Assembly (NCBI GenBank): GCA_009787685.1
Contig: WQSV01000001.1
Location: 1-53,266, forward strand
Direction: 5' to 3'
Length of the DNA stretch: 53,266 bases
Source of the DNA: Bacillota bacterium
GTDB lineage: Bacteria > Bacillota > Clostridia > Christensenellales > Pumilibacteraceae
Below the pieces are notes generated by a model, which saw only the letters and a program-made list of their open reading frames with translations, had not been told where the DNA came from and made no database searches. Positions 3,175 to 50,900 of this stretch are shown piece after piece. The translations under genes and the position numbers were made by a program. The number at the start of each line of letters is the position of its first letter. Positions within the stretch are counted from its first letter, which is position 1.

Positions 3175-3720
3175 TTAGACTAGTTCGATGAGTGCTAGTT
3201 CTGCTGCGTCACCACGGCGAGGTCCCATTTTTAGGACGCGGGTGTAGCCACCTTTTGTTCCGGTGTCTTCAGCTCTTTGCGCGTACTTCGGAGCATATTC
3301 GTTGAAGATTTTTTCAATTAGAGGGTGGGCGATGTGTTCAGTTCTGATTCTGAATTGAGCTTTTGTTTCGCCTTTTGCTCTAATTTCTTGGACATCATAG
3401 ACATTCGCCATGATTTTTCTTCTGGCGTTTAATTTGGTTGGCCCATCGTTAATCAATTCGACTTTCACTTCTCTTTCAGTGACCGTCAAATTGCCTTTTT
3501 TGTCGCGTTTTTTGTCGTGCTTGATTCTTGTTTCGACTTTTTTGACGGTGTCGGTGTAGGAATTAACCGCAAGCGTGATTAGTTGTTCAGCTAGGCTTTG
3601 CACTTCTTTTGCTCTTGCATGAGTTGTTTCAATTCTTCCATGCCAAAGCAATTGCGTGACTTGTCCACGCAATAGTGCCATTCTTTGATCTGTTCTTTTT
3701 CCAAGTTTTCTGTTTATCAT
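3175..3720 (-). CDS. rplQ: 50S ribosomal protein L17 (long form with internal/C-terminal expansion)
   Basis: MINRKLGKRTDQRMALLRGQVTQLLWHGRIETT. ATG at 3720 is preceded by ggagacacc. The upstream part of ORF 3175-3780 lies in the repeat spacer. Confidence 0.9.
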   Translation of the reverse strand: MINRKLGKRTDQRMALLRGQVTQLLWHGRIETTHARAKEVQSLAEQLITLAVNSYTDTVKKVETRIKHDKKRDKKGNLTVTEREVKVELINDGPTKLNARRKIMANVYDVQEIRAKGETKAQFRIRTEHIAHPLIEKIFNEYAPKYAQRAEDTGTKGGYTRVLKMGPRRGDAAELALIELV

Positions 3721-3730
3721 GGTGTCTCCA

Positions 3731-3805
3731 GTGAATAGTGAATAGTGAATAGTGTTGGTTAGAATTTTTAAAATAATCATCTTTTAATAACTATTCACTA
3801 TTCAT
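3731..3805. repeat. intercistronic hairpin, GAATAGT heptamer arms (rpoA|rplQ spacer)
   Basis: Left arm (gtgaatagt)x3, right arm aactattcactattcat, about 35-nt AT-rich loop. Confidence 0.7.
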
Positions 3806-3812
3806 TGAATTA

Positions 3813-5514: not shown

Positions 5515-5610
5515 AATTCATAATGCATGATTCATAATGCATAATTGTTGTTCGAATTTTTTTTGTGGTAGTTTTTCCTTAATTCTGCATTATGCCTCTG
5601 CATTATGCAT
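5515..5610. repeat. intercistronic hairpin, CATAATG heptamer arms (rpsK|rpsD spacer)
   Basis: aattcataatgcatgattcataatgcataatt pairs with aattctgcattatgcctctgcattatgcat, imperfect inverted repeat. Confidence 0.7.
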
Positions 5611-5617
5611 TTTAAAA

Positions 5618-6028
5618 TTAAACGCGTCTGCGTTTTGGTGGACGGCATCCGTTGTGTGGAATTGGCGAAACATCGGTAATGCTTGTCACTCTGATTCCTG
5701 AGTTTTCAACCGCTCTGATCGCACTCTCTCTGCCTGACCCCGGGCCTTTAACAAAAACATCTGCGCTTCTCATTCCATGGTCTTTTGCAAGCAATGCTGC
5801 TTTCTCTGATGCTTGTTGAGCGGCGTATGGTGTTGATTTTCTGTTACCACGGAATCCAAGCGCACCAGCAGAAGACGCGGAAATAGTGTTCCCACGAGTG
5901 TCAGTTATTGTTATGATAGTGTTGTTGAAAGATGCTTGAACATGAACTTGTCCTCTGTCAACATTTTTTGTCACTTTTGGCTTTCTTGATGTGCCACGAG
6001 ATGTTTTTCTTTGTTTTGGTGCAGCCAT
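5618..6028 (-). CDS. rpsK: 30S ribosomal protein S11
   Basis: [28 protein letters not shown]; ATG at 6028 with SD ggagagaaag. Confidence 0.93.
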
Positions 6029-6068
6029 TGCTTTCTCTCCGAGTGTCCTTTTGGACTTAATTTCGCTT

Positions 6069-6088
6069 TTCTCTCCATTGGGAGAGAA
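6069..6088 (-). promoter_or_regulatory. SD-decoy / anti-SD hairpin in the rpsM|rpsK spacer
   Basis: In mRNA sense UUCUCUCC-CAAU-GGAGAGAA forms a perfect 8-bp stem. The same GGAGAGAA is the genuine rpsK SD about 40 nt downstream. Confidence 0.4.
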
Positions 6089-6189
6089 CAATTCAACGCA
6101 TAATGCTTAATGCACAATTGTTGATTATGTTTTTTAAAAAATTCTAATGCCTTTCCTAGAAATAGTTCAGACAAAAGCCACTAGTGGCT

Positions 6190-6558
6190 TTATTTTTTCT
6201 TTTTGCCGACAGTTTTCTTTTTGCCCTTTCTTGTTCTTGCGTTTTGCTTTGTTGACTGCCCACGAACTGGAAGTCCTTTTCTGTGACGGACTCCACGATA
6301 ACAACCAATCTCCATGAGACGCTTAATAGAAAGTGCGACATCACGACGAAGGTCACCCTCGACTTTGATGTTTTTGTCGATATAGGTTCTGAGTTTGTTT
6401 AACTCCGTTTCACTGAGATTTTTAACTCTTGTGTTCGGGTCAACTTCAGTCTCAGCAAGGATTTTTTCCGAAGTGCGTCTGCCTATGCCAAAAACATAGG
6501 TTAGTCCGATTTCTATTCTTTTTTCTCTTGGGATATCCACCCCTGCGATACGCGCCAT
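6190..6558 (-). CDS. rpsM: 30S ribosomal protein S13
   Basis: [26 protein letters not shown]; ATG at 6558 with SD ggagcaaaat. Confidence 0.95.
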
Positions 6559-6857: not shown

Positions 6858-7084
6858 AAATCTCCTTGTTCAACGCTTAACGCGTAACGCATAACGATTA
6901 TTAAAATTAGTTTGCAAAATTCTATCTTTCGTTATGAATCGTGCAATTGTGAGTTGTGGGTTGATTTTAGCCTTGTCTTTGTTTGTGATTTGGGTATTTT
7001 GGGCAAATTATTACAATCCTGCCGTGGCGTTTCACGACTTTGCAGTTGTTGCACATTGGTTTTACTGATGCTCTTACTTTCATA

Positions 7085-7429
7085 TTATGTCTTCGACACT
7101 TTACTTTTTGTCGTGTCGCCTCCTTTGGTCACTTTGTGGCCTTCGTCTTTTTTGTCCTTGCAGAACATTAATAGTGTTCTTGCAATTTCTTTGTCGTTGT
7201 GAGTTTCTATTTTATCAAGAGAAAGTGTCTCCTCTTTAATAACTAATAAGTGTTTGAATCGTTTTTTTTTCGGATTTTTTCGTTTTCGATATTGCCCATC
7301 AACGATTTCCACAAATTCGTGATCGATGACTTTTGTCACCAAATACATTCTTCCTCTGTCATGTCCCATTGTTGAAATGACGATTTGTCCGAGGGCTGGT
7401 ATCTTGGATGTTTTGGTTCGTTTGTCCAT
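7085..7429 (-). CDS. KOW-domain RNA-binding protein (the small gene found between map and infA in Clostridia)
   Basis: [49 protein letters not shown]. The ATG at 7429 was chosen by homology. SD is weak, so the start is uncertain. Confidence 0.7.
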
Positions 7430-7504: not shown

Positions 7505-7615
7505 ATTTATCGTGTCTTGTCAAGCATCTTGGATGCTTTTGTGAGAAATTTCTTTTATGAGAAATTCGTTAGCAAACAGGTCGAAGACCCTTTTCAAGCA
7601 TTTTAGATTCTTTTA
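7505..7615 (+). repeat. GTCGAAGAC-family repeat, 1-2 degenerate units
   Basis: ttgtcaagcatcttggatgcttttgtg ... aacaggtcgaagacccttttcaagcattttagattc. Confidence 0.7.
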
Positions 7616-8437: not shown

Positions 8438-8745
8438 GTGTTGTCAAGCATCTTCGATGCCTTTGTCGGAGAAGTCTAAGTAATAGCAATTTCCTTCAAA
8501 AGGGCTGAAAGTCCTTATCAACAGTCTTCGACTGCTTTGTTGGGTTCTGCTTGCATTCGCATTCAGCGTCAAGAGGGTCGAAGACCTTTGTCAAGCATCT
8601 TTGATGCTCTTGTCGGAGATTGCTATTATTAGAAACATCCTCACAAAGGGGTCGAAGACCCTTGTCAACAGTCTTCGACTGGTTTCTCGGATTCTGCGTG
8701 TATTTGCACTCTCCGTCAAAAAGGTCGAAAATTCTTGTCAATTTT
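8438..8745 (+). repeat. GTCGAAGAC-family repeat array (about 4 units) between adk and map
   Basis: Repeated gggtcgaagacc / agggctgaaagtcc first hairpins and cagtcttcgactg / agcatctttgatgct second hairpins. An approximately 80-bp block, about 8590-8670, is nearly identical to about 39490-39570. Confidence 0.9.
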
Positions 8746-10876: not shown

Positions 10877-11386
10877 TTACTTTGCCCCTCTTTCAGAAAG
10901 AGGTCTCTTTTTGCCTTTTTCGTTAAGGCTGTTGTTGATGATTTCGATTTCGATTACTTTTCCGCCAGCAGCTTCAATTGCTTTTTTTGCACCTTCTGAA
11001 AACTTGTTTGCTTTGACTGTTAATGCTTTTGTCAAAGTTCCCGAACCAAGAATTTTCACCCCATACTCTTCGACTTTTGAAAGTATTCCAAATTCAAGAA
11101 GTGTTTCAGCATTGATTTCTGTTTTCGCATCAAATCTTTCAAGGTCACTTAAGTTAACAATTGAATATTCTTTTTTGAAAGCATTATCAAACCCTCTTTT
11201 CGGGATTCTTCTCATTAGAGGTTTTTGCCCACCTTCAAAACCGATGCTAACACCACCGCCACTGCGTGCCCACTGACCTTTGTGCCCTTTACAACATGTT
11301 TTGCCATGACCGCTGGCAATGCCACGACCAAGTCTTTTTTCTTTTTTCTTTGAGCCCGCTTGGGGTTGAATAGTGTGTATTTTCAT
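10877..11386 (-). CDS. rplO: 50S ribosomal protein L15 (about 20-aa C-terminal extension)
   Basis: [38 protein letters not shown]; ATG at 11386 with SD tagaggaaatc. Confidence 0.93.
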
Positions 11387-11538
11387 AGTGATTTCCTCTA
11401 GTTTTTTCGATTCGACATTTTGTCCTAATCTAAATTTAGAGTGAATAGTGAATAGTGATAGTAAATAGTGATAGTAGAATAATTTTAAATCAATTCTATC
11501 CTGCACCTATTATTATGCATTATTCATTATTCACTGAA

Positions 11539-11739
11539 TTAAGCGATTTCTTCTACTTTTACCAAGTGTTTGACGACGAACAGCATTCCTCTTAAGCTTT
11601 CGCTGTCCGAGTGAGTGACACTTTGTCTTATTTTTCTCAAGCCCAAAGCTTGGATTGTCTTTTTTTGTTTTTCAAGACAACCAATTGTGCTTTTTACTAA
11701 TGTGATTTTGATTTGTTTGTTTGCTTCTTTCTTAGCCAT
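11539..11739 (-). CDS. rpmD: 50S ribosomal protein L30
   Basis: MAKKEANKQIKITLVKSTIGCLEKQKKTIQALGLRKI. Confidence 0.93.
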   Translation of the reverse strand: MAKKEANKQIKITLVKSTIGCLEKQKKTIQALGLRKIRQSVTHSDSESLRGMLFVVKHLVKVEEIA

Positions 11740-13548: not shown

Positions 13549-13561
13549 GTTTTCCTTTTTT

Positions 13562-13693
13562 AATGCAGAATGCTAAATGCATAATGCATAATTATTGTTA
13601 AAATTTTTTGAACTCCTTCGGCTTTACCGAGGATCGACACACTCGTGTCAATTTTGACATCAATTCTGCATTATGCATTTAGCATTCTGCATT
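13562..13693. repeat. intercistronic hairpin, 32-bp arms with one mismatch (rpsH|rplF spacer)
   Basis: aatgcagaatgctaaatgcataatgcaTaatt (13562-13593) pairs with aattCtgcattatgcatttagcattctgcatt (13662-13693). The loop holds a nested gacac-actc-gtgtc hairpin. Confidence 0.9.
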
Positions 13694-13701
13694 GAATAAA
13701 G

Positions 13702-14112: not shown

Positions 14113-14252
14113 TATTATAATGCAGAATGCAAAAATACAAAATGCAAAATAATTGTTAGACTTTTCTAGTTTCTTCGTCTTTATTTAAAGACTATTATAA
14201 TAATTTTCACCTATATTCTGCATTCTGCATTCTGCATTCTGCATTCTATAAT
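14113..14252. repeat. intercistronic hairpin, GCAGAAT arms (rpsN|rpsH spacer)
   Basis: tattataatgcagaatgca.. pairs with (attctgc)x4 attctataata. Confidence 0.75.
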
Positions 14253-14439: not shown

Positions 14440-14573
14440 GTTTACTTTCTCTCCGTTGTCCAAAGTTTGGACGATTGGTTTTTCAATTTAATTCAGAATT
14501 CAAAATTATGAATTAAGAATTATTGATGATTTATTTTTTCATTCGACCTTAATTCTAAATTCTGAATTAATTT

Positions 14574-15707
14574 CTATGTTCTAAAAGGCATTCCGATTTT
14601 TGTTAGTAGCGCTAGTGCATCAGCGTCCGTTTTCGCAGTCGTTACGATTGCAATATCAAAGCCTCTGACTTTTTCTACTGTTTCATAGGAAATTTCTGGG
14701 AAGATAATCTGTTCTTTGACACCCATTGAGTAGTTTCCTCTGCCGTCAAACGACTTTGGCGAAATACCCCTAAAGTCTCTGACGCGTGGAAGTGCGACTG
14801 CAATAAGTTTGTCAAGAAATTCATACATTCTTTCTCCGCGAAGAGTGACTTTAATACCGATTGGTTGATTCTCACGAAGTTTGAAGTTAGAAACTGATTT
14901 TTTTGCTCTAACTAGGACGCTTTTTTGTCCAGCAATTTGCTCAAGTTCAGTTTGTGCTTGTTTGATTGATTTTGTGTTATCTTTAATGTCACCGATTCTC
15001 ATGTTCAAGATGATTTTGTCAACTTTCGGAACTTCAAAGATGTTTTTATAACCCTGTTCTTTTTTGAGTTCTGGAGCAATTTCAGTTGAATAACGCTTTT
15101 TAAGACGATGTCTTGTTTCAGACGATAGTGTCTTTTGTGGGGCGACTCTCTTTGGCTCTTCTTTTTTAGATTCAGTTTTTGGTGCCGAAGCAGGTTTTGA
15201 AGCTTCTTTTTTAACTTCTTCAACTTTCGGAGCAACTACTGGAGTCGCTTTTGGCTCTTCTTTCTGAATTTCAACAGCTTTTGGTGCTAGCTCAACTTTT
15301 GACTCTTCTGCTTTCACTTCTTTCTTTGGCTCTGCTTTTGCTTTTGCAGGAGCTTTTTCTTTTGCTTCTGTTTTAGGCTTTGGCTCGGCTTTCGGTTTTG
15401 CAGGAGCTTTCTCTTTTTCTACCTTCTCTTTTGGCTCTGTCTTTGGCTTCGGTTCTGCTTTTGGCTTCGCCGTTGCTTTTTTTGGTTTTTCTGTTGTCGC
15501 AGCCACTTCCGCTCCCGCTTCTTCGATGCTTGCAGTTGACATAATTGCTTCAATTGCCTTAGCCGCAGTTTCTTTGATCGCGTCTATTGCTTTTTCTTTT
15601 GATTTTGAAGATGCTTTTGGCTCAGTCGCCTTTTTAGCTGGTGCTTTCTTCGCTTTTGGCTCGTCGGTTACAACTTCTTTAGTAACCTGATCATCTTTTT
15701 TAGCCAT
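14574..15707 (-). CDS. rplE: 50S ribosomal protein L5 with an approximately 195-aa N-terminal K/A/P/E-rich extension
   Basis: The C-terminal ~180 aa is canonical L5 ([39 protein letters not shown]). The in-frame N-terminal low-complexity region has [11 protein letters not shown] repeats. A strong SD aaggagaaatc precedes the ATG at 15707. There is no in-frame ATG near the start of the L5 domain. Confidence 0.9.
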
Positions 15708-15816
15708 GATTTCTCCTTGATTATTGAATATGGAATATTTAATATTAAATAAGTCTTGTCAAATCTAATTTAATCATTACTTATTCAATACTCCATATTA
15801 ACTATTACATAATAAT

Positions 15817-16313: not shown

Positions 16314-16454
16314 ATTTAACGCATAACGCATAACGCATAACGCATAATGAATGTTTATTTGGATTGTTAACGATGACGAAAACGTTAGACTCAATCACGA
16401 TATTCAAAATTCTATTATCGTTATGAGTTATAAGTTATGCGTTATGCGTTAAAT
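16314..16454. repeat. intercistronic hairpin, GCATAAC arms (rplN|rplX spacer)
   Basis: atttaac(gcataac)x3gcataatgaatg pairs with tattatcgttatgagttataagttatgcgttatgcgttaaat. The outer ~22 bp are perfect. Confidence 0.85.
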
Positions 16455-16823: not shown

Positions 16824-16921
16824 GATTATTCTCCGAATATGGAATATGGAATATGGAATAGATAAAGATAAAATATTTTTTTATCAACACATTTCAATAT
16901 TCAATATTCAATAGTAAAATA

Positions 16922-18701: not shown

Positions 18702-18740
18702 GTTTCTCCTAAACGCATAAACGCGTAATGAATTCTTTAT

Positions 18741-18840
18741 TTTAGTGAATAACGAATAGCGAACAGTGAATAGTTGTTGTTAAAGCTTTAAAATAATTTG
18801 GCAATAGTTATTCACTATTAATTATTCCCTATTCACTAAA
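18741..18840. repeat. intercistronic hairpin, GAATAGT-type arms (rplV|rpsC spacer)
   Basis: tttagtgaataacgaatagcgaacagtgaatagtt pairs with aatagttattcactattaattattccctattcactaaa. Confidence 0.7.
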
Positions 18841-18847
18841 ATTGCTT

Positions 18848-19240
18848 TTAGTTTTCTTTCGCCTCATCAAGAATAACCGTGATGTGACTTGTTCTTTTGT
18901 TGATGCGGTGACCTCTTCCCTTTGATACCGGCTGCATTCTCTTCATGATTGGCCCAGCATCTGCATAGATTTCAGAAACGACGAGGTCGTGTCTTGAGAG
19001 GTTTTGGTTGTGTTCAGCATTTGCAACAGCACTTTCAATCAACTTTATCACCATTGGTGAAGCCGCTTTTGGAGTTGCTCTCAAACTTGCAATAGCATCA
19101 TTAACCGCCTTGCCACGAATTGTGTCAAGGACGACACGCACTTTAAAAGGAGATATTCTCAAATATCTTGCGTGTGCTTTTGGACGAGTGTCCTTATTTT
19201 CGCGACGGAATGCCGCTTTTTCTCTCATTCTTGTTGCCAT
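18848..19240 (-). CDS. rplV: 50S ribosomal protein L22
   Basis: ARYLRISPFKVRVVLDTIRGKAV..; ATG at 19240 with SD aaaggaaatc. Confidence 0.93.
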   Translation of the reverse strand: MATRMREKAAFRRENKDTRPKAHARYLRISPFKVRVVLDTIRGKAVNDAIASLRATPKAASPMVIKLIESAVANAEHNQNLSRHDLVVSEIYADAGPIMKRMQPVSKGRGHRINKRTSHITVILDEAKEN

Positions 19241-19251
19241 GATTTCCTTTT

Positions 19252-19384
19252 GACGCATTATGCATAATGCATAGTGCATAATGAATGTTGAAATTTTATG
19301 TTTTATAATAACAACAAACGATACAAGCATACGAGACTACTAATTTAACTTTCGTTATGCGTTATGCGTTATGCGTTATGCATT
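19252..19384. repeat. intercistronic hairpin, GCATAAT vs GCATAAC arms (rpsS|rplV spacer)
   Basis: gacgcattatgcataatgcatagtgcataatgaatg pairs with ttc(gttatgc)x4att. Confidence 0.7.
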
Positions 19385-19393
19385 AAAACATTA

Positions 19394-19672
19394 TTATTTT
19401 TTGCCTTTTGTTGTTTTCGACCCCGCATGTCCACGAAAGTTTCTTGTTGGTGCGAATTCTCCAAGTTTGTGTCCAACCATTTCTTCTGTGCAATAGACTG
19501 GAACGTGTTTTTTTCCATCATGAACAGCGATTGTTGAACCAACAAAATCCGGGTAGATAGTCGATGCTCTCGACCATGTTTTGATTACTTTTTTATTTTC
19601 ATGGCCCTGCGCTCTGACTCTTTTCAAAAGTTTATTACACACAAAAGGCCCTTTTTTGATACTTCTCGACAT
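19394..19672 (-). CDS. rpsS: 30S ribosomal protein S19
   Basis: [19 protein letters not shown].. Confidence 0.96.
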
Positions 19673-19684
19673 AATTTTTTCCTC

Positions 19685-19791
19685 AATGCAGAATGCAAAA
19701 TGCAGAATGCAGAATAGTTGTTGTAATTTTTTTAATATTTAATAAACAAATTTGACCTTTATTCTGCATTCTGCATTTTGCATTCTGCATT
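19685..19791. repeat. intercistronic hairpin with a perfect 32-bp stem (rplB|rpsS spacer)
   Basis: aatgcagaatgcaaaatgcagaatgcagaata (19685-19716) is the exact reverse complement of 19760-19791, with a 43-nt AT-rich loop. Confidence 0.95.
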
Positions 19792-19798
19792 AAATAAA

Positions 19799-20626
19799 TT
19801 AGTTAATACGCTTAACAATAAACTTGTTAGATTTTGATTTCTTTCTTGTTTTATAGCCAAGCGCTGGTTGACCCCATGGAGACACTGGACCCGGACGACC
19901 AATTGGTGACTTTCCTTCACCACCACCGTGTGGATGGTCGCATGGGTTCATCGCAGAACCTCTAACAGTTGGCTTAATGCCCATGTGACGCTTTCTTCCC
20001 GCTTTTCCAAGCGAAACCAGTTCATGGTCAAGATTTCCAATTTGCCCAACAGTAGCGCGACATCTGACAGGAATCATTCTCATCTCTCCCGATGGCAATT
20101 TTAAGGTCGCATATTTGCCTTCTCTTGCCATCAACTGAGCGCACGCTCCCGCACTTTTCGCGATTTGCCCGCCAGCACCCGGTTGCATCTCAATGTTGTG
20201 AACCGTTGTTCCAACTGGTATTGCTGAAAGTGGAAGCGCATTACCCGCTTTAATGTCAATATTTTCAACACCGCTCATGACACTATCGCCAACACAAAGT
20301 CCAACTGGAGCAAGAATATATCTTTTTTCACCATCCGCATAATGAAGAAGAGCAATATTTGCTGACCTGTTTGGATCATACTCAATTGTTGCGACTTTTG
20401 CAGGAATATTGTCTTTGTTGCGTTTGAAATCAATAATACGATATTTGATTCTGTTACCGCCACCACGATGACGAACAGTGATTCGACCCGTGTTATTACG
20501 CCCCGCTTTTTGATTAAGCGAAACCAATAGCGACTTTTCCGGTTGGTTTGTCGTTATTTCTTCATAAGTCAACGTTGTCTTAAAACGTTGCGCTGGTGTT
20601 ATTGGTCTATATCTTTTAATAGGCAT
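19799..20626 (-). CDS. rplB: 50S ribosomal protein L2
   Basis: [32 protein letters not shown]. Confidence 0.97.
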
Positions 20627-20724
20627 GATGCTTCCTCTCTTATTGAATAATGGAGAATAGGTTTCGTCAAATTATTATTTAATTTTCATAAATTCCATAT
20701 TCAATATTAATATTCAATAGATTA

Positions 20725-21015: not shown

Positions 21016-21026
21016 GTTTTCTCCTT

Positions 21027-21120
21027 TTAGTGAATAACTAATAGTGAATAGTGAATAGTTATTGTCAAATTATTAAATTAAAATTATACCTTAACTATTC
21101 ACTATTCATTATTCACTATC
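21027..21120. repeat. intercistronic hairpin, GAATAGT arms (rplD|rplW spacer)
   Basis: ttagtgaataactaatagtgaatagtgaatagtt pairs with aactattcactattcattattcactatc. Confidence 0.75.
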
Positions 21121-21128
21121 AACTAAAA

Positions 21129-21761
21129 TTACGCTTGCTCTGAATATTGCGCTTCAATTTGTTTGATTCCCTCAACAGTTGCAACAATTCTTTGATTTGC
21201 AACAAGGTCATAAACATTGATTAGACTTGCTTCGATTGTTTTGACATTTGGAAGATTTCTAGACGCCCTAATCACACTTTCGCTGTTAGCCGTCGTGATG
21301 AGAAGAACGCTTTTTTCAAGCTTTAACGCTTCCATGATTTTTGCCATTTCTTTCGTTTTCGCATCAGCTAATTTAATGTCATCAAGCAAAACAAGCTCTT
21401 GATTTCTGACTTTTTCAGAAAATGCACTGCAAAGAGCAACTCTTTTTGCTTGTTTGTTGACTTTTTGAGAGAAATCTCTCGGCTTTGGAGCAAATATCAC
21501 CCCACCACCAGTCCACAACGGCGAACGAGTCGAACCCGCTCTCGCGCGTCCAGTTCCTTTTTGGCGATGAGGCTTTCTTCCTCCACCACGAACTTCGGCT
21601 CTTGTCAAAGTAGACTTCGTGCCTTGACGCTTGTTGTTCAATTGCGCCACGACGACTTGATGAATGAGCGGTTCGTTATATTCCGCGTCAAACACTTTCT
21701 CATTAAGAGTTAATGTGCTGGCTTTTTCGCCAGTTTGCTTGTAAATTTGAACTTTTGGCAT
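21129..21761 (-). CDS. rplD: 50S ribosomal protein L4
   Basis: MPKVQIYKQTGEK..RGGGRKPHRQKGTGRARAGSTRSPLWTGGG; ATG at 21761 with SD aaaaaggataac. Confidence 0.94.
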   Translation of the reverse strand: MPKVQIYKQTGEKASTLTLNEKVFDAEYNEPLIHQVVVAQLNNKRQGTKSTLTRAEVRGGGRKPHRQKGTGRARAGSTRSPLWTGGGVIFAPKPRDFSQKVNKQAKRVALCSAFSEKVRNQELVLLDDIKLADAKTKEMAKIMEALKLEKSVLLITTANSESVIRASRNLPNVKTIEASLINVYDLVANQRIVATVEGIKQIEAQYSEQA

Positions 21762-21895
21762 GTTATCCTTTTTAATGCACGATGCATAACGAATGTTAAT
21801 TTTTATTGATGCACAACCACTAGAAACGCTAAAACCATAAGATACTAAAAATAATATTTTTAAATCACTATGCATTATGCGCTATGCGTCATGCG

Positions 21896-22542: not shown

Positions 22543-22675
22543 TTAATGCATAATGCACAACGCATAACGCATAACGAATGTTAGTTTTTTAATTTTTTTC
22601 ACACCACCCCAAACACATTTCGCAGTCCACGATTATTCTCTCAATCGCTGTGCATTATGCGTAACGCGTTGCATG
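22543..22675. repeat. intercistronic hairpin, GCATAAC arms (rpsJ|rplC spacer)
   Basis: ttaatgcataatgcacaacgcataacgcataacgaatg pairs with caatcgctgtgcattatgcgtaacgcgttgcatg. Confidence 0.65.
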
Positions 22676-32650: not shown

Positions 32651-32754
32651 ACACATCTAGATTATCTACTTTCTGCTAAATTCATTTAGGTGTGCTTATC
32701 AACAATACGTCCCTACTAATTAAACTCACTCTCTCATCCATTGTGCATTGTGAA

Positions 32755-36335: not shown

Positions 36336-36430
36336 ATTTTAATAGAGAGTGAATGGTTGAAAATGAAAATTCGAGATGTTGTTAAAAAATTCCCTCATCT
36401 TCACTCTTGGCTCTTCACTCTTATAGCAAT

Positions 36431-38252: not shown

Positions 38253-38299
38253 GATTTCCTTTTCAACGCACGATGCTCAATGCACAATGCTCAAATTTG

Positions 38300-39477: not shown

Positions 39478-39592
39478 AAAGTTTTTTTGTCAAGCATCTT
39501 TGATGCTCTTGTCGGAGATTGCTATTATTTAGAAACATCCTCACAAAGGGCTCGAAGACCCTTGTCAAGCGTTTGCATATTGGGGTTTGAGC
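39478..39592 (+). repeat. GTCGAAGAC-family unit abutting the prophage end
   Basis: tgtcaagcatctttgatgctcttgtcggagattgctattatttagaaacatcctcacaaagggctcgaagacccttgtcaa, nearly identical to about 8590-8670. Confidence 0.85.
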
Positions 39593-39757: not shown

Positions 39758-40984
39758 TTAGTTGCTGAAATCGGGATATAGGTTTCCGTAGATTTCCAGA
39801 ACTTCTTGTTTGGTTATGTTTGGGTCGTAGGTGGTGTAGCGGTCTGATGTCATTCTGCTGTCTTTGTGACCCATTGCGTGTTGACGGAATTTGTCGTTTG
39901 CTCCTAGATAGAATAGGTTTGAGCAGAAAGTATGGCGAAGGCTGTGGAGAGATGTGTCATCAAATTTTAAACCAATTTTGATTAGAAATTCTCTAAACCT
40001 TACCGCATAGTTTGTTCCCTTTCCGTTTTTAAACATCTTGTCCCATTTGGTGCGGAGTATGTCGCAGTAGGCTTGTGAGATTTTGACATAGCCACTTGTT
40101 CCATCGCTTTTTTGGCGATTGACCCATACTCTGTTGTTGTCGAAGTCTGGCTCGCAATTTGGGGCTTCGTTTGCTCGGCATCCAACCATTAAATAGAAAT
40201 CAATCTCGTCAGCGATTTTTGTCTCACCCTTTCTTGCGTGAATGATTTTCTGTTCTTCAATGTCAAACCATCTTCCTTTTACTTTTTCAAACGCTGGGCA
40301 TTTTAGGGTTGAGATTGGGTTTCTTTCGATTATTCCCTCCTCAACTGCATCAGCAAAAGTTAATTTCAAGATTTGTAAAACTTGGACTGGTTGGATTGGC
40401 AGATCTTTCAAGAAAGTTAGAATGTCCAATTTGGTGTATTCATCAATTGGCTTATCTAGTTTTGAAAGGTGCTTGTCTATCATTCCTCGCAATTTCTCAA
40501 AATCGTTTCGATTTGCTTTCGCACTTTTGACACATAGGTCGAACAATATCGGACATTCCCTTTTGAGCCTTGACACAAAACGAGTGTGTTTGAGAATGTT
40601 TTTCAACTCCCTCATTCGCTCCGCTATTTTCTTTTTCAACACTCGGTAGTCCTTATCAATCTCTCTGTGCCAGACCCCTGCTATCATTTTTTGCCATTCG
40701 AATCTTCCGTCTTTTCGCAGACGGACATTTTTTTGTGTTCGCATAAACTCTTGTTCCTCCTCGTTGAGTTGTTTTGAGTTCTCTGCGAATTGACCTTTTT
40801 TAGATGACCCTCCTTCATTTTGTGTAAGATTAGTATAGCATTTTTCGGAATTTTTGTCAACTGAAAAAGGGTTGTTTATCGGTCTATTTTCAATAGAAAA
40901 TGCCACAAATCGCCCAACTGTTTCTGTGAGCGTTGCAATCATTTTGCTCTGTTCAACTAGTTGTTGTTGCAATTCTGCACCCAT
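39758..40984 (-). CDS. int: tyrosine recombinase / phage integrase
   Basis: C-terminal LHSLRHTFCSNLF..AMGHKDSRMTSDRYTTY (R..HxxR..Y catalytic pattern); SD aaaggagc. Confidence 0.85.
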   Translation of the reverse strand: MGAELQQQLVEQSKMIATLTETVGRFVAFSIENRPINNPFSVDKNSEKCYTNLTQNEGGSSKKGQFAENSKQLNEEEQEFMRTQKNVRLRKDGRFEWQKMIAGVWHREIDKDYRVLKKKIAERMRELKNILKHTRFVSRLKRECPILFDLCVKSAKANRNDFEKLRGMIDKHLSKLDKPIDEYTKLDILTFLKDLPIQPVQVLQILKLTFADAVEEGIIERNPISTLKCPAFEKVKGRWFDIEEQKIIHARKGETKIADEIDFYLMVGCRANEAPNCEPDFDNNRVWVNRQKSDGTSGYVKISQAYCDILRTKWDKMFKNGKGTNYAVRFREFLIKIGLKFDDTSLHSLRHTFCSNLFYLGANDKFRQHAMGHKDSRMTSDRYTTYDPNITKQEVLEIYGNLYPDFSN

Positions 40985-41010
40985 TGTTTTTTGCTCCTTT
41001 CGTTTTCGTA

Positions 41011-42054
41011 TTAACTGAAAATATCTTCATCTTCATTGATTACACCGAACATCATTATTTGATCGGCAGTCATTGGTTGGTTTGGTTTTGGCATTGGGAT
41101 TGGGTTTTCTGTTTTTCCGAATTCCCATAGGAAGTGGATTCTGCGTTTGAACGCTTCAAAGGTTTCTGGTTCTTCTTGTTGTATTAAGGGGTATTGGGAA
41201 TTTAGCGGAATGTTGCTTGCTATGTAGACTGTGTCGTAGCAGGCGGTTTTGTTGTTGTAGCGAGCGGGTAAATCTAAGGGGTAGCCGTCGAGTTGCTTTA
41301 AGATGTCGGATATTTTTAGGTGGGAGCGGAACTCGTCGAATAGGACTATTTTTTGTCCTTTGTAGGTATCCCACATGGAGCGGTCATAGTTCGTCACGAC
41401 ATAGACATTTTCATAGCCATATTTTTCCATAACATGACGAGTTTTTCCAACTCCTGTTTTACTCCAGATGTAGGTTGTGGTTAATTGGCGAAAGGTTTTT
41501 CGGAAAATCTCTTGTCGTTGCTCGTCACGAGCAGAAACATAGGCTTTAATGCGGTTTGAATAGAGCAAGAATTGTGATGGATAGGCATTTTGAATTTCTG
41601 CCATGCTTGCACCTTCTTCTAGTAGCATGATGATGTTTCTTAGGTCGTTGCGTTTGCCTTGTTCTTCTTCAAGGTTGATTTCGCCATTGCCTATTGGCTC
41701 GCCGATACGCGTTTCAGTTTTTGTCACATAGTCATAGGCTTGCCTTCGTGTGCCTCGTCTTTCTTCAATGTGGGCGAATGGGATTTTTTTCTTCAAGGTT
41801 GAAAAGCGTATGGGCTCAATGTTTTCGATATATATTTGATAGTGTTCGTAATCAGACTTTTCGCCTTTTTCGAGTTGCCCTATCCAAGTGTAAGGAGAAA
41901 GTGCTTCTATTAAATCGGCTTGCGAAATCTTTTCTGCTGATTGAGTGACGAGCCATGAGCGTGAACGGGTGTCTCGCTTTTTGTTTTCTTTTGAGTTGTT
42001 TTCGCTTTCTTTTGTTTCAGTTTCATTGTTAATGGTTGTTTCAATTTGCTCCAT
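41011..42054 (-). CDS. rep: rolling-circle replication initiator: HUH endonuclease plus SF3 helicase (CRESS-like Rep architecture)
   Basis: Motif I SWLVTQS, motif II HYQIYI, motif III YDYVTK, Walker A SKTGVGKT, Walker B IVLFDEF, motif C IASN. Confidence 0.75.
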   Translation of the reverse strand: MEQIETTINNETETKESENNSKENKKRDTRSRSWLVTQSAEKISQADLIEALSPYTWIGQLEKGEKSDYEHYQIYIENIEPIRFSTLKKKIPFAHIEERRGTRRQAYDYVTKTETRIGEPIGNGEINLEEEQGKRNDLRNIIMLLEEGASMAEIQNAYPSQFLLYSNRIKAYVSARDEQRQEIFRKTFRQLTTTYIWSKTGVGKTRHVMEKYGYENVYVVTNYDRSMWDTYKGQKIVLFDEFRSHLKISDILKQLDGYPLDLPARYNNKTACYDTVYIASNIPLNSQYPLIQQEEPETFEAFKRRIHFLWEFGKTENPIPMPKPNQPMTADQIMMFGVINEDEDIFS

Positions 42055-42721
42055 AGTTGCCTCCTATATCAAAAAATGATTGTTGGTTTTTGTAGCGATT
42101 AAGCCTTGCAGTTGCTTTTTGAAAGTAGGTTTTGTCGATTTCAAAGCCTAGATATTGAAATCCTGCTTTGTGGCAAGCAATGAGAGATGAAGCACTTCCG
42201 ACATGAGTATCGAGAATTCTATCGCCTTTTTTTGCGAATAGGTTGAGTATCCATGAGTAGAGTTTGATTGGTTTTTGTGTTGGGTGGAGTCGTTCTTCGT
42301 TTGCAGTGCCTTGCGGAACACATTCAAAAATTTTTGCGTTAGCGTTAAAACTTGTCCAAGCGTATTCGCACATAGCCATTGTAAATTTTTCGCCGATTGT
42401 TAGTTTTCGCCAAACTGCAAAACAGCGAGTAGGTGGAAGGTCAAAGTAGTTCCCACCCCAAATAATCTGATTTTTGCTGACTCGAAAAAGTTCGTTGAAA
42501 TATTCTTTTTTGGGAGCGATATCCCAATCAATGATTTTCTTTTCAATTTTTTTCTTGTTGAGAGCGTTTCGCCCTCGCCCACCAATGAAAGGTTTTTCAC
42601 ATTCAAAGTTAGCGTTGCCATATGGTGGGTCAACGATAGCAAGTTCAAAAAAATTATCTGGAATGGTTTTCATAGCGGTTAGGCAATCCATATTGTAGAG
42701 TTTGTTTAATTCAAAATTCAT
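42041..42721 (-). CDS. beta-class DNA methyltransferase (N6-A or N4-C)
   Basis: LYNMDCLTAMK..AIVDPPYG (motif IV) lies before ..RILDTHVGSASSLIACHKAGFQYLGFEID (motif I). ATG 42721 was chosen; the ORF part 42722-42946 covers GC-rich hairpins. Confidence 0.8.
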   Translation of the reverse strand: MNFELNKLYNMDCLTAMKTIPDNFFELAIVDPPYGNANFECEKPFIGGRGRNALNKKKIEKKIIDWDIAPKKEYFNELFRVSKNQIIWGGNYFDLPPTRCFAVWRKLTIGEKFTMAMCEYAWTSFNANAKIFECVPQGTANEERLHPTQKPIKLYSWILNLFAKKGDRILDTHVGSASSLIACHKAGFQYLGFEIDKTYFQKATARLNRYKNQQSFFDIGGNYGAN

Positions 42722-42847
42722 TTTTGTTTTTGTCCTTTTTGAAGTCATTGATTTTAGTTTGAACACAGCCAGCACAAAAGGGTTGAAAACCCTGTCACAG
42801 TCACAGTAGTTATCTAAAAGGTAACAATAGGCTTTTAGAATGATTCC

Positions 42848-42954
42848 GCCCGCCGCAAGCGGCGGGCAAAGTGTCGCCACAGGCAAAACGGGGGGCAAGC
42901 CCTGTTCCGTTTTTTGCCTGTGCGTGCTTCTTGTTATGTCACGCATAGTGCGTG
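42848..42954. other. cluster of GC-rich hairpins (candidate replication origin or packaging signal)
   Basis: gcccgccgc-aa-gcggcgggc. cacaggcaaaacgg..(gggc-aa-gccc)..ccgttttttgcctgtg. cacgca-tag-tgcgtg. Local GC is far above the surroundings. Confidence 0.5.
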
Positions 42955-42975
42955 TTTAAAGCGTTGTTTTGCGGT

Positions 42976-43392
42976 TTAAGGCAAGTTCTCGCTTTGTTGA
43001 AGCAATTGTTGTTGTTCGTTGTTGCCTTGTTGCAATGCTTGTTGCGACTGCATTTTGAGAGCGTTTTCAAGGTCTTTCAATGCTTGTTCTGAAACCTTTT
43101 TTGCTTTTGTTTTTCTCTCAATTGTGTCGTTGGGTGAGAGAAATTTTGCTTCCTTTTTGATTGCTTTCCAGTCTTTTTTGAAAGCCCATAGGATTGTTTT
43201 GGCAAAGTATAAGACAACATTTTGCCCTAGAATTACCTTGTTGCTTTCTTCAGAGTTTGGAAAAACTGAATGAATATCTGGTGCAGTTTCCCCAATGCTC
43301 ATGAGATGCATATATGCTTTTTGGGCAGGGTCAGTTAGTAGGTCTAAATATGACAGTGCTTTTTTTCTTGTTTTCTTTTTGTTGAAAAACAT
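42976..43392 (-). CDS. hypothetical protein
   Basis: 138 aa; SD cggagaat. Confidence 0.5.
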   Translation of the reverse strand: MFFNKKKTRKKALSYLDLLTDPAQKAYMHLMSIGETAPDIHSVFPNSEESNKVILGQNVVLYFAKTILWAFKKDWKAIKKEAKFLSPNDTIERKTKAKKVSEQALKDLENALKMQSQQALQQGNNEQQQLLQQSENLP

Positions 43393-43437
43393 TTTGTTTT
43401 ATTCTCCGTTAAAAATTATTTTTTGTTCGTCAAATAA

Positions 43438-43466
43438 GTGACTTCTATGATAAAATATGGTATAAT
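43438..43466 (+). promoter_or_regulatory. promoter of the KilA-N gene (extended -10)
   Basis: gtgact .. tgGTATAAT; SD aaaaggag before the ATG at 43491. Confidence 0.5.
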
Positions 43467-43490
43467 GAAATCATAAAAAGGAGTTTAAGT

Positions 43491-44313
43491 ATGTCAAAAT
43501 CACTTGAAATTAAAGGGATTGATATTGGTTACAAGAAAATCAATAAGGAAGATTATATCTCTCTCACTGATATGGCAAAGTATAAAAACGCGGAAATTCC
43601 TGCTCATGTCATATCACATTGGCTAAGCACTAAATTCGCAGTTGAGTTTTTGGGCATATGGGAAAAAACAAACAAACCCCAATTTTAACCTCACGGAATT
43701 CCGTGACATTAGAAATGATAGTGGTGGCAGTTTCACTCTCTCCCCTAAGCAATGGATAGAAAAAACTAATGCAATCGGATTGGTTTCAAGTGCAGGAAGA
43801 TATGGCGGAACTTTTGCTCACAAAGACATTGCTTTTGAATTTGCTACTTGGTTGAGTGCTGAATTCAAGTTTTGGATTATTCAAGAATTCCAACGCTTAA
43901 AGTCTGATGAATAACAATTGATAGCGTGGAGTGCAAAAAGAGAGCTCGCAAAAATCAACTATCACATTCAAACGAGTGCAATTGCACAGAATTTAATAGT
44001 GCCAACATTGACTGCAAGTCAAAAAAGTTTTGTTTATGCTGATGAAGCAGATTTGTTAAATGTTTCACTTTTTGGAATTACTGCATCAGAATGGCGAAAA
44101 GCAAATAAGGATAAAGACGGAAATATTCGTGATTATGCATCAATTCATCAACTGTTGGTTTTGGCGAACATGGAAAGCTACAACGCAATCATGATTAAAG
44201 ACAAATTGAGCCAACCAGAAAGACTTGACAAATTAAACGAGATGGCTCGTCAACAATTGCAAGTTTTGTCACAGGTTGAAAATAGGCTATATCTTCCAAA
44301 AAAAGACGATTAA
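43491..44313 (+). pseudogene. KilA-N domain protein, disrupted by one frameshift (about 43672-43680) and one in-frame TAA (43915-43917)
   Basis: Three consecutive ORFs together read ..DYISLTDMAKYKN..FLGIWEKTN / NPNFNLTEF..GRYGGTFAHKDIAFEFATWLSAEFKFWIIQEFQRLKSDE* / QLIAWSAKRELAKINYHIQTSAI.. Confidence 0.75.
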
Positions 44314-44346
44314 TTCAAAGCAGTGTCCTTGTGGCACTGTTTTCTT

Positions 44347-45120
44347 TTACGCTCCTTTTCTAAAGGCTTTTGGCACTTCGATTTGGGGAAGTCCACCATG
44401 ACCGCCGCAGTGGAAGTCTTGGTTGTCTTTGCCTTCTAGGAAATATTTGTGGTAGCCGTAGGAGTTGTAGCAGCTGAAGATGTTGCCCCAGTATTCGTAA
44501 GAAGTTGGCATTCCTTCGTTGAAGTTTGACTTGGTGTCGGAAAAGCGTTCTGCACTTTCTGTTGATGGGAACTCTAGACATTGCCATTTTGTGTGGATAA
44601 TATTTCCGAATTTGTCCTTGCTATGTTTTAGGTCGAGAATGAAAATGAAGCGTTCACATAAACCACGAATTGCCTTGTCAATGCTAACTGGTCGTTGGCA
44701 AGTTAGGACAATGTCTAGGTGGTAGTGGCGGTGTTGGGCAAAATAGTTCACAACAAAAGGTGGAATATATTTTCGCCTGCTGTCGTAATACATTTGAGCC
44801 TCGTCAAGTCCAATGAACGCATAAGGTGGAAGATAGACCGTTTCATGATGGGGGTTTGAATACCCTATTTTCCAACCATCAACGAATCTGTTTTTGAGTG
44901 GTCGTTGGAACTCTTTTCGCAAATAGACATCATAGTCAGTATAGACTAGGTGGTTTTTGAGTTGTGATAGGTTATGCCCTACTCTGTTGAGTGAGCGGAC
45001 ATATTGGCGAAGTCTTGAAATGTCAATCAACGCGTTTTCCCCACTCATTTTCATCAGTGCGAACAATGTTGCGAGTGCTGTTTTGCCAGAACCTATATCG
45101 CCAGAGATTATTGATAACAT
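44347..45120 (-). CDS. Zot / pI-like P-loop morphogenesis ATPase
   Basis: MLSIISGDIGSGKTALA (Walker A) .. FIGLDEAQMYY (Walker B) .. HRHYHLDIVLTCQRP. No C-terminal TM segment is seen. Confidence 0.55.
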   Translation of the reverse strand: MLSIISGDIGSGKTALATLFALMKMSGENALIDISRLRQYVRSLNRVGHNLSQLKNHLVYTDYDVYLRKEFQRPLKNRFVDGWKIGYSNPHHETVYLPPYAFIGLDEAQMYYDSRRKYIPPFVVNYFAQHRHYHLDIVLTCQRPVSIDKAIRGLCERFIFILDLKHSKDKFGNIIHTKWQCLEFPSTESAERFSDTKSNFNEGMPTSYEYWGNIFSCYNSYGYHKYFLEGKDNQDFHCGGHGGLPQIEVPKAFRKGA

Positions 45121-45122
45121 TG

Positions 45123-45269
45123 TTAATCCCTCCTAAACAGTCTGAAAAACGCGATAATTAATTTTACAAGCAAGCGAAGTATCCACGCTAAAATCTTGAA
45201 TGGCAACATGATAATGAACTTCACGACAGAAAAAATCATTAATATCGCCTTGATTAGTAGATATATCAT
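45123..45269 (-). CDS. 48-aa hydrophobic protein with a basic C-terminus (coat-protein-like)
   Basis: MIYLLIKAILMIFSVVKFIIMLPFKILAWILRLLVKLIIAFFRLFRRD; ATGA overlap with the upstream gene. Confidence 0.5.
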   Translation of the reverse strand: MIYLLIKAILMIFSVVKFIIMLPFKILAWILRLLVKLIIAFFRLFRRD

Positions 45270-47272: not shown

Positions 47273-47864
47273 TTGTTGCCTCCTGTATCTGATTTTTGGT
47301 TTTCTCAATTTCTGCAACTAGAATTTCGCCCTCAATTTCCAGTGGCAATAGTTCAAACAGCAACTCGCTTCGCCTTGCACTCAAAAACATCATGCGTTGA
47401 AGTTGCGTGATATTGATTTTCTGATTGGCTAGAATTTCGGCATATTCAGAGTCAACTGCGTTTAGTTGAGATTGCAATATAGAAATCACATTAGTGACGA
47501 GCGTTAGTCTTTCGTTGAGTAGTTGCAGTCGTGCAGAGTAGTATTCAAGCCTTAGATTATGTTGTTCTTGTTCAAGTTCGACGAGTTCTCGTTCAAGTTC
47601 TTCTGTTTCGTCGCTGTTGACTTGTGGTGGGTTTTCAATCTCTCGCTCCAAATCGTTGATGATGTTTTGATAATTTTCTTTTGAAGAATTTCCTGCATTT
47701 TCGCCAGAGAGTAGTCCTTGCTCATACGCTAAATCCAAATATTCATATGGAAACCGCTCTTCCCCGCTAATTCGTGATTGAATGTTTTCCCAGTTTAGAT
47801 AGATGACGAAACCTCCGACAGCAAGAAGTACGACAACAACTAAAAATCCTAAAAACTTTTTCAT
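47256..47864 (-). CDS. membrane-anchored coiled-coil protein
   Basis: N-terminal TM followed by heptad-rich E/L/Q sequence; ATGA overlap with the upstream gene. Confidence 0.55.
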   Translation of the reverse strand: MKKFLGFLVVVVLLAVGGFVIYLNWENIQSRISGEERFPYEYLDLAYEQGLLSGENAGNSSKENYQNIINDLEREIENPPQVNSDETEELERELVELEQEQHNLRLEYYSARLQLLNERLTLVTNVISILQSQLNAVDSEYAEILANQKINITQLQRMMFLSARRSELLFELLPLEIEGEILVAEIEKTKNQIQEATNDKND

Positions 47865-50660: not shown

Positions 50661-50900
50661 CTATTGCTTTCTCTCTGCAATCGAAACTTTGTGTCCCTTG
50701 CTTTTGAGTCTGTCAACATACTTTTCCAAAACATGATGTGGAATGCCGCACATATTTTCACGCTTGAAACCAACATCACGACTGGTTATAACAAGGTCTA
50801 GTTCTTTTGCGGCAACTTCAGCATCCTTTCCAAACAATTCAAAAAAATCGCCAACCTGATAGAACAACAATGACTCGTTATTCCTTTCTTTGAGCGACAT
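50661..50900 (-). CDS. stand-alone MutS domain I (mismatch-binding domain)-like protein, probably the -1 frame extension of the upstream gene
   Basis: SLLFYQVGDFFELFGKDAEVAAKELDLVITSR..MCGIPHHVLEKYVDRLKSKGHKVSIAE. The homology continues upstream of the ATG (TPLFREY). Confidence 0.6.
   Translation of the reverse strand: MSLKERNNESLLFYQVGDFFELFGKDAEVAAKELDLVITSRDVGFKRENMCGIPHHVLEKYVDRLKSKGHKVSIAERKQ

Follow-up and report, generated by a model that had tools for sequence, protein, structure and literature searches.

The stretch of DNA analysed here, referred to below as the window, comprises 53,266 nucleotides of contig WQSV01000001.1 (assembly GCA_009787685.1) from an uncultured Clostridia bacterium, whose nearest named relative by ribosomal protein L2 is Pumilibacter (80% identity). 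The S10-spc-alpha ribosomal protein (r-protein) cluster is located on its minus strand, and between two genes of this cluster, rplB and rpsS, there is a long inverted repeat which is the subject of this report. On the plus strand the 32-mer at 19685-19716 (AATGCAGAATGCAAAATGCAGAATGCAGAATA) matches the reverse complement of 19760-19791 at every position, and the two arms are separated by 43 nt (19717-19759); the repeat had been noticed in a reading of the sequence alone, and both its coordinates and its exact complementarity were recovered on recomputation. The pairing grows to 39 nt per arm (19678-19716 / 19760-19798), composed of 36 Watson-Crick (WC) pairs, two G.U pairs and one mismatch. In the order of the mRNA the junction consists of the following parts:

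rplB, 19799-20626, minus strand, with the stop codon TAA at 19799-19801
full extended stem-loop, 19678-19798, minus strand, with 39-nt arms
5' arm on the mRNA, 19760-19791, minus strand, AATGCAG AATGCAA AATGCAG AATGCAG AATA, that is 4.4 heptad units
loop, 19717-19759, minus strand, 43 nt, A/T-rich, kept in the sister species
3' arm on the mRNA, 19685-19716, minus strand, TATT CTGCATT CTGCATT TTGCATT CTGCATT, the perfect complement of the 5' arm
rpsS, 19394-19672, minus strand, with ATG at 19670-19672 and the Shine-Dalgarno sequence GAGG at 19681-19684

No nucleotide separates the rplB stop codon from the base of the extended stem, and the Shine-Dalgarno GAGG of rpsS stands directly 3' of the perfect arm and is overlapped by the extended stem. 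Within the loop, the 5' end (19749-19759) reads AAGGTCAAATT and the 3' end (19717-19724) reads ACAACAAC. The one variant unit of the arm, AATGCAA, has its mirror TTGCATT in the opposite arm, and the 32-mer occurs four times in the window at up to three mismatches against 0.00 expected. Folded as RNA, the element reaches -57.5 kcal/mol compared with -20.3 +/- 2.9 for shuffled sequences (z = -12.75), which agrees with the proposal that a perfect duplex of 32 bp (with 39-nt arms when flanks are counted) would form inside the rplB-rpsS transcript. Folded as DNA it gives -38.6 kcal/mol (z = -11.2), and the site, described earlier as cruciform-prone, is cruciform-capable by this measure. Sister-genome hairpins are met with 100% identity on independent Logan contigs, which break inside the arms, and extended open reading frames (ORFs) that read through two hairpins of the window are identical on 5 and 6 contigs, rpsS being present on a similar number. 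Because identical copies are found on independent contigs, the hairpins are regarded as real and stable in the sampled population.

The rplB-rpsS hairpin is one of about 25 related heptad-armed hairpin elements in the r-protein cluster of this uncultured Clostridia lineage. The elements number about 25 per cluster and have arms of 20-47 nt, a total size of 75-145 bp and A/T-rich loops. After gene starts had been corrected against a compact relative, spacers of at least 60 nt were measured at 28 of the 31 junctions from rpsJ to rplQ (median 118 nt), and most of these spacers contain a heptad-armed hairpin or what is left of one, so the earlier assignment of the repeat to a family is borne out. 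What the sequence-only reading overlooked is the chief feature, namely that the arms are tandem heptamers, that nearly all junctions of the cluster are occupied and that the elements behave as repeats of the DNA. The description of the rplB-rpsS repeat as the cleanest member is correct within the window, where the runners-up are the S8-L6 (44/50 WC) and L14-L24 (33/37 WC) elements. According to Tandem Repeats Finder and a scan of our own, seven is the only enriched tandem period of the window: all 16 stringent 7-nt runs fall within 3.7-22.6 kb, which is the S10-spc-alpha cluster, and no runs of periods 8-11 were found in the window at the stringent setting. The unit types are AATGCAG/AATGCAT, AACGCAT, AATAGTG, AATATTG/AATATGG and AATTCAG, in which an AAT or AAC triplet often recurs. 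A stop codon in every heptad was considered as a general rule and rejected; it holds for TAACGCA and TAGCGCA and fails for AATGCAG and AAATTAC.

Stems typically begin 0-5 nt past the stop codon (median about 3) and finish about 13 nt before the start codon, that is at the Shine-Dalgarno sequence. One subfamily has the core motif AAGGTCAAATT ... (A)TCAAC(A); that of the AACGCAT subfamily is ...GGTTGTGCATCAATAAAAATTAACATTC, and the copies of the AACGCAT type have a loop of about 60 nt with the end ...AATAAAAATTAACATTC and all lie in one orientation relative to transcription. In the S8-L6 element three different variant units are mirrored between the arms. Besides the rplB-rpsS hairpin, the following members were recorded:

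rpsJ-rplC, 22558-22671, minus strand, AACGCRT type with drifted arms
rplC-rplD, 21777-21880, minus strand, CGCATRA units, imperfect
rplD-rplW, 21025-21128, minus strand, AATAGTG type, 37/47 WC
rplW-rplB, 20627-20724, minus strand, degenerate, AATATTG type, loop motif reversed
rpsS-rplV, 19248-19388, minus strand, 5' arm of four AACGCAT units and 3' arm of ATGCAYT units, giving one C.A mismatch per heptad
rplV-rpsC, 18739-18842, minus strand, AATAGTG type
rpsQ-rplN, 16838-16913, minus strand, AATATTG / CCATATT
rplN-rplX, 16314-16454, minus strand, AACGCAT type, 33/37 WC
rplX-rplE, 15720-15813, minus strand, AATATGG type, loop reversed
rplE-rpsN, 14485-14573, minus strand, AATTCAG type
rpsN-rpsH, 14116-14248, minus strand, five AATGCAG units with a decayed 3' arm
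rpsH-rplF, 13556-13699, minus strand, AATGCAG/AATGCTA/AATGCAT units mirrored in both arms, 44/50 WC
rpmD-rplO, 11440-11535, minus strand, AGTGAAT type
rpsK-rpsD, 5515-5611, minus strand, AATGCAT/AATGCAG type
rpoA-rplQ, 3729-3807, minus strand, AATAGTG type, 20/23 WC
upstream of hutH, outside the r-protein cluster, 36336-36430, minus strand, a family-like heptad hairpin

Outside the cluster the window holds one full member, the one upstream of hutH, and a few half elements. At 38253-38299 there is an array of 3'-arm type only (GCATTGT GCATTGA GCATCGT GCGTTGA) directly before the Shine-Dalgarno sequence of a class II aminoacyl-tRNA synthetase gene, and at 32657-32754, upstream of hutU, two CACAATG units follow a stop codon. 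Within the cluster, programs for ORF calling push the starts of r-protein genes upstream into hairpin arms (21129-21875, 18848-19330, 10877-11506, 5618-6091 and 3175-3780), by which L4 is called with 248 aa versus 210, L22 with 143/160 versus 130 and L15 with 209 versus 169, and S11 and L17 likewise. As the callers extend these genes into the arms, public protein sets contain heptad-encoded N-terminal artefacts. On the minus strand there is also the gene order map, a 115-aa KOW-like small protein, rpmJ, infA and rpsM (7085-7429, 6967-7083); rpmJ precedes infA, and a heptad element separates the two. Directly past the rpsM stop codon, inside the alpha operon, a terminator-like hairpin AAAGCCACTAGTGGCTTTT was seen (about 6170-6192, minus strand), downstream of which come a loop with a 3' arm remnant and then a small TTCTCTCCC...GGAGAGAA hairpin before rpsK. 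The small hairpin recurs upstream of rpoA in L174, a third lineage represented by one contig of 1.5 kb which also carries the heptad trait.

Among the loci compared, the heptad hairpins were found beyond the window only in L174 and in a sister species (L162/L172) whose L2 and RpoA proteins are 96% identical in amino acids to those of the window and whose r-protein genes are 83% identical in nucleotides, with 62% at third codon positions; L082 possibly carries the trait in a rudimentary form. About 160 related r-protein loci (1.37 Mb) contain only 5 heptad runs and are almost devoid of long inverted repeats; in about 170 related loci the spacers are roughly 12-20 nt long, with essentially no such repeats. 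Scans of genomes and metagenomes seeded with L2, and not with the heptad pattern, gave best matches of 79% identity, all with compact operons. In relatives with 82% L2 identity, all of one compact species, the rplB-rpsS spacer is 12 nt, which dates the heptad-hairpin trait. In the same compact group (L165-L171, about 11122-11613) the rpsQ-rplN spacer varies between strains from about 240 to 490 nt, with 0-23 nt at the other junctions.

The rplB-rpsS spacer of the sister species also forms a hairpin (-28 kcal/mol, z = -6.4), and it is here that the arms and the loop can be followed separately. The sister loop is the best match to the window loop among 28 loops, reciprocally so, with 32 of 34 aligned nucleotides in common, which far exceeds the 62% at synonymous sites. 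The sister arms are built of AAATTAC units and are still complementary to each other. Counted outward from the loop, the stem shows 13 double-sided changes, one single-sided change, 11 unchanged positions and 12 positions which are unpaired in the sister. A comparison of the two arms had been proposed in the sequence-only reading, and when it is run between species the rplB-rpsS arms do not drift independently, therefore either selection or arm-to-arm copying is at work. The earlier choice between a recent origin and active homogenisation of the arms fits this replacement of arms with pairing kept, as it fits the mirrored AATGCAA unit. At most orthologous junctions, the window and the sister species have different unit types, and the loops are no more similar there than non-orthologous loops. 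The L29-S17 junction holds an element in L162 and is 3 nt long in the window.

With moderate confidence, the rplB-rpsS hairpin is taken to be a DNA-level palindromic repeat whose arms templated copying has recently perfected and whose transcription gives a long intercistronic stem, probably with effects on processing, stability and coupling. The structure at rplB-rpsS measures 107-121 bp. Each element consists of two inverted arrays of 3-5 tandem 7-bp units around an A/T-rich core with a conserved motif, and the family occupies nearly every intercistronic junction of the S10-spc-alpha cluster in this Clostridia lineage. The elements appear to be copied, flipped, gained and lost, laid over older copies, and to decay. 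We infer that the perfect arms at rplB-rpsS come from arm-to-arm copying on the DNA together with homogenisation of units within the arrays, the likely processes being fold-back or quasipalindrome template switching, slippage and conversion. By published accounts, inverted repeats are made perfect when template switching takes place at quasipalindromes, and strong transcription of the DNA promotes this switching (PMC7202029, PMC3820800). With transcription of the operon running through the element, its mRNA would carry a perfect stem of 32-39 bp from the rplB stop codon to the rpsS Shine-Dalgarno sequence; folding would loop the insert out and hold the stop of rplB and the start of rpsS close to each other, and the stem would be a likely substrate of, or barrier for, double-strand-specific and exonucleolytic RNases.

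Several lines of observation carry this reading. The sister genome contains at least eight nearly identical AAATTAC-type copies of about 90 bp, and since all of these hold the same non-periodic third unit, AGTGGAC, copying of whole elements is indicated. Judged from the loop motif AAGGTCAAATT...ATCAAC, six of the copies are placed one way and two are flipped (L3-L4 and Map-x96), and flipped loops are present in the window too. Leftover 3' arms of an older type sit between newer hairpins and the Shine-Dalgarno sequence, for example at the window rplV-rpsC junction, where an AACGCAT-type 3' arm (about 18705-18735) remains, and the members span the range from perfect to badly decayed or half-deleted. 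The mismatches point in the same direction. On the sense strand the window has 13 G.U to 14 A.C mismatches and the sister genome 21 to 48; in the latter, A.C exceeds G.U in ten elements and G.U exceeds A.C in one. The counts are not independent, as the units within an arm are copies of each other. In some elements one A.C or C.A mismatch recurs heptad after heptad, which shows that units have been homogenised within an arm at the cost of pairing in the sense RNA.

There are, nevertheless, a number of points which weigh against an origin of this kind. A Pfam scan of the ORFs in the 53-kb window found no transposase or other mobilising gene, the flanks of six AAATTAC-type copies showed no consistent target-site duplications, and the REP tags GTAG/CGTC were present at either outer end of 0 of 31 heptad hairpins. 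The elements are enriched about 20-fold in r-protein junctions relative to the other intergenic regions of the window, which could reflect functional selection and not targeting or tolerance. In two species close to synonymous saturation the same junctions have kept hairpins, and this persistence, together with the conservation of the rplB-rpsS loop beyond synonymous sites, fits a selected role. All AACGCAT-type and most other copies face the same way relative to transcription. No polymorphism in unit number was noticed among 5-6 contigs of the window species, so homogenisation is not fast on the time-scale of a population, and the whole comparative base is a small one, comprising two genomes and one fragment.

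In the principal rival the hairpins would be RNA elements under selection, placed as punctuation between the cistrons of the polycistronic r-protein mRNA, with the pairing of the arms kept by selection on RNA structure. The punctuation might take the form of RNase III sites, of barriers to RNase J or PNPase, and/or of an adjacency of stop codon and Shine-Dalgarno sequence serving translational coupling. RNase III needs roughly 20 bp of double-stranded RNA, and the rplB-rpsS stem, with 32 perfect bp (39 with flanks), exceeds this length; cleavage of the stem by RNase III is plausible, as judged from duplex length. It speaks for this explanation that in both genomes the stems run up to the stop codon on one side (median about 3 nt) and to the Shine-Dalgarno sequence on the other (median about 13 nt to the start codon), that hairpins occur at 28-29 of 31 junctions in two species with third codon positions only 62% identical, and that the 13 double-sided changes at rplB-rpsS left the loop conserved. 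The biased loop orientation and the strong enrichment in a highly expressed cluster compared with the rest of the window agree with it as well, and the Correia elements offer a precedent of repeat hairpins which are cut or bound by RNase III (PMC2649163). However, selection on the sense RNA would predict what the mismatches do not show: G.U is not in excess over A.C, and in the sister genome the relation is reversed. Moreover, one or two sense-strand mismatches per heptad are retained at rpsS-rplV (in both genomes) and at L29-S17 and L18-S5 (in L162), flipped copies occur, many copies are decayed or are half elements, and close relatives get by with 12-nt spacers. The suggestion in the sequence-only reading that matched changes would indicate selection or conversion thus holds at rplB-rpsS as far as the co-variation of the arms is concerned, its selection branch lacks the expected surplus of G.U over A.C, and the arms of many sibling elements have drifted. 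The perfect complementarity is best explained by DNA-level copying, selection on the sense RNA duplex accounting for it less well, and RNA punctuation as the cause of the pairing is judged unlikely.

It is still more doubtful that the hairpins represent a previously undescribed system, either a new class of mobile element or a new mechanism of operon punctuation. In the first form, ends made of programmable heptad arrays around a conserved core may be directed by an enzyme into the gaps between stop codon and Shine-Dalgarno sequence in highly expressed operons. In the second, every r-protein cistron may be split off by a processed or protected stem (by RNase III, or as a barrier to RNase J) which couples termination to re-initiation, and the conserved loop may act as a recognition site. 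The literature searched held no description of heptad-armed intercistronic hairpins. A search against Rfam returned no match at gathering level in the window, and by E-value only sub-threshold generic models of microRNA-precursor hairpins; comparison of the elements with plasmid and phage collections by BLAST yielded chance A/T-rich matches or none. The 11-mer loop motif was tried as a search key and abandoned as unspecific (7 matches versus 3.7 expected at one mismatch).

Another explanation regards the heptad arrays as register-specific sites at which a multimeric protein would bind, each subunit taking 7 nt, be it a single-strand RNA binder of the HutP, TRAP or Csp kind competing with the hairpin, or a DNA-binding protein or recombinase which reads one AAY triplet per 7 bp and the loop motif. 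The strict period of seven across different unit sequences with a recurrent AAT/AAC (AATGCAG, AATAGTG, AACGCAT, AATATTG, AATTCAG), a loop motif conserved above neutral expectation and the arms that stay periodic though their pairing is lost are all in its favour. There are also analogies, since HutP binds UAG triplets with a 4-nt spacing. A second one is CspB, which binds heptamers (discussed in PMC4679880). It is nonetheless very improbable, given that no candidate protein was found, that sister units such as GTGGTCA, TAGTGAT and GAAAATT have no AAY triplet, that several unit types lie side by side in one genome and that a perfect duplex of 32 bp would shut out a single-strand binder. HutP itself was considered in view of the hut operon in the window and rejected, as the small gene of 132 aa upstream of hutH is not HutP. 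The protein between map and rpmJ, which has no Pfam hit, was set aside as a lineage-specific hairpin factor, as we take it to be KOW-like and widespread in Firmicutes.

That the hairpin should be an intrinsic terminator, an internal promoter, a product of chance or an assembly artefact is hardly conceivable: a strong stem-loop in an A/T-rich spacer and Logan contigs that break within arms would suit such explanations, but no U-tract follows the stem on either strand (the rplB-rpsS stem is followed by GAGGAAAAAA, and the terminator scan was blank at the element), promoter and terminator matches stay at the level of shuffled sequence, fold z-scores are -11 to -13, the sequence is identical in independent assemblies with the hairpin-spanning ORFs of the window identical on 5-6 contigs, and 31 ordered family members are present across two genomes.

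Few gene arrays of bacteria are as compact and as conserved as the ribosomal protein operons, whose junctions of 10-20 nt underlie translational coupling and autogenous control. Here almost every r-protein junction is widened about ten-fold by a strong hairpin, and the operon is still intact in two species. Should the elements be selfish, they show that palindromic inserts are tolerable at the most sensitive junctions, perhaps since the RNA folds the insert away, and the family would be a natural case of concerted evolution of inverted-repeat arms. Should they be functional, they would be an undescribed means of segmenting or stabilising polycistronic mRNA in Firmicutes. In practical terms, the elements break short-read assemblies and make gene callers extend r-protein ORFs into spacers.

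Some other features of the window and of the sister genome can be recorded. The L5 gene (window 14574-15707, minus strand) encodes about 190 additional aa at the N-terminus, with an abundance of Lys, Ala, Pro and Glu; in L162 (15014-16360) L5 has 448 aa in total, and compact relatives have a normal L5 of 194 aa. A second and unrelated repeat family, TTGACAAGGGTCTTCGACCC, has a 5-bp stem and a TTCG loop with a TTGACA-like hexamer ahead, and is found on the minus strand at 2552-2955, 7578-7597, 8575-8668 and 39549-39568; it counts nine copies at up to three mismatches against 0 expected and forms tandem blocks of 73/147 nt downstream of spo0A and between adk and map. An inovirus-like integrated element occupies 39758-47317 (tyrosine integrase, Rep with Viral_Rep and helicase domains, N6/N4 methylase, KilA-N and Zot), and a few kb from it, at 50661-50900, there is a 79-aa fragment of MutS domain I. 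In the sister genome, where sense-strand A.C mismatches outnumber G.U, C-rich 3' arms stand opposite 5' arms of the TAGTGAT/GTGGTCA type (e.g. L162 11223-11314, 13367-13450 and 18484-18558), so that G.T wobbles would give better pairing on the antisense strand. At L172 10978-11009 and L162 20119-20188, 5' arms of AGGTGATC / GGTGATT face 3' arms of AATCACC; the former resemble an extended Shine-Dalgarno sequence and the latter the 3' end of 16S rRNA, which may be a coincidence.

When known systems are compared, intercistronic stems for RNase III or other processing are familiar from the phage T7 early mRNA and from rRNA operons. If the heptad stems are cleaved, they would be similar to these as long stems between the cistrons of highly expressed polycistronic RNA. 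In T7 the sites are short, imperfectly paired and interrupted by internal loops, and their sequence is conserved, whereas the heptad stems are 20-45 bp long, built of repeats and variable in sequence, and their cleavage is putative. In template switching at quasipalindromes one arm serves as the template for the other, which would account for mirrored variants and perfect arms without selection (PMC7202029, PMC3820800); this switching is, however, a mutational process and not a family of elements, and gives no account of how copies reach new junctions.

The heptad theme is common with STRR of cyanobacteria and the TAACTGA repeats of Beggiatoaceae, cyanobacteria and Bacteroidetes, which are likewise tandem 7-nt intergenic units, often ending just upstream of a start codon, with several unit variants and a lineage-restricted occurrence, and for which post-transcriptional roles have been proposed (PMC4679880). 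Period-7 arrays are found here in intergenic DNA as well, with the 3' arrays finishing at the Shine-Dalgarno sequence. Those repeats are direct arrays (169 direct sets versus one inverted in the Guaymas genome; PMC4679880), in contrast to the heptad hairpins, where two arrays face each other in inverted orientation across a conserved core; the units of the two groups are not related in sequence.

Correia elements (CREE), along with similar MITEs such as ERIC, RUP and BOX, resemble the heptad hairpins in their size of 100-150 bp, terminal inverted repeats, conserved core, co-transcription with neighbouring genes and presence/absence polymorphism between strains, and the RNA hairpin of the Neisseria element is bound or cut by RNase III (PMC2649163, PMC3184786). 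The heptad elements have terminal inverted repeats, a small size, an A/T-rich core and multiple copies, and they display both insertion polymorphism (L29-S17 occupied or empty) and two orientations (the flips at L3-L4 and Map-x96). They differ from Correia in sequence, to which no similarity was found, in not having the TA duplication, and in that their inverted repeats are heptad arrays, replaced from one sister species to the other around a core that is kept.

REPINs and REP-BIMEs are palindromic elements mobilised by RAYT (TnpA-REP) transposases (PMC3116915, PMC3333891, PMC3733652). They too are multi-copy non-coding palindromes of about 100 bp forming long hairpins between genes, also inside operons, as sequence populations specific to a genome and without target-site duplications, and by analogy the capacity to stabilise upstream mRNA may be a further likeness. 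The arms in the window are, on the other hand, tandem 7-bp arrays of several coexisting unit types and not one conserved REP, the GTAG/CGTC tag at the end of the palindrome is missing from all 31 heptad hairpins, RAYT (Y1_Tnp) had no match among the ORFs scanned in these 53 kb of the genome, the copies are concentrated in r-protein junctions and not scattered in extragenic space, and the host is a low-GC Firmicute. Many nearly identical inverted-doublet hairpins between genes are nevertheless present, namely the AAATTAC type in L162/L172 and several of the AATGCAG type in the window. By these analogies the elements would, in the way they work, come closest to REPINs/REP-BIMEs and to MITEs such as Correia, and the heptad hairpins look like an unusual variant of bacterial palindromic repeat elements.

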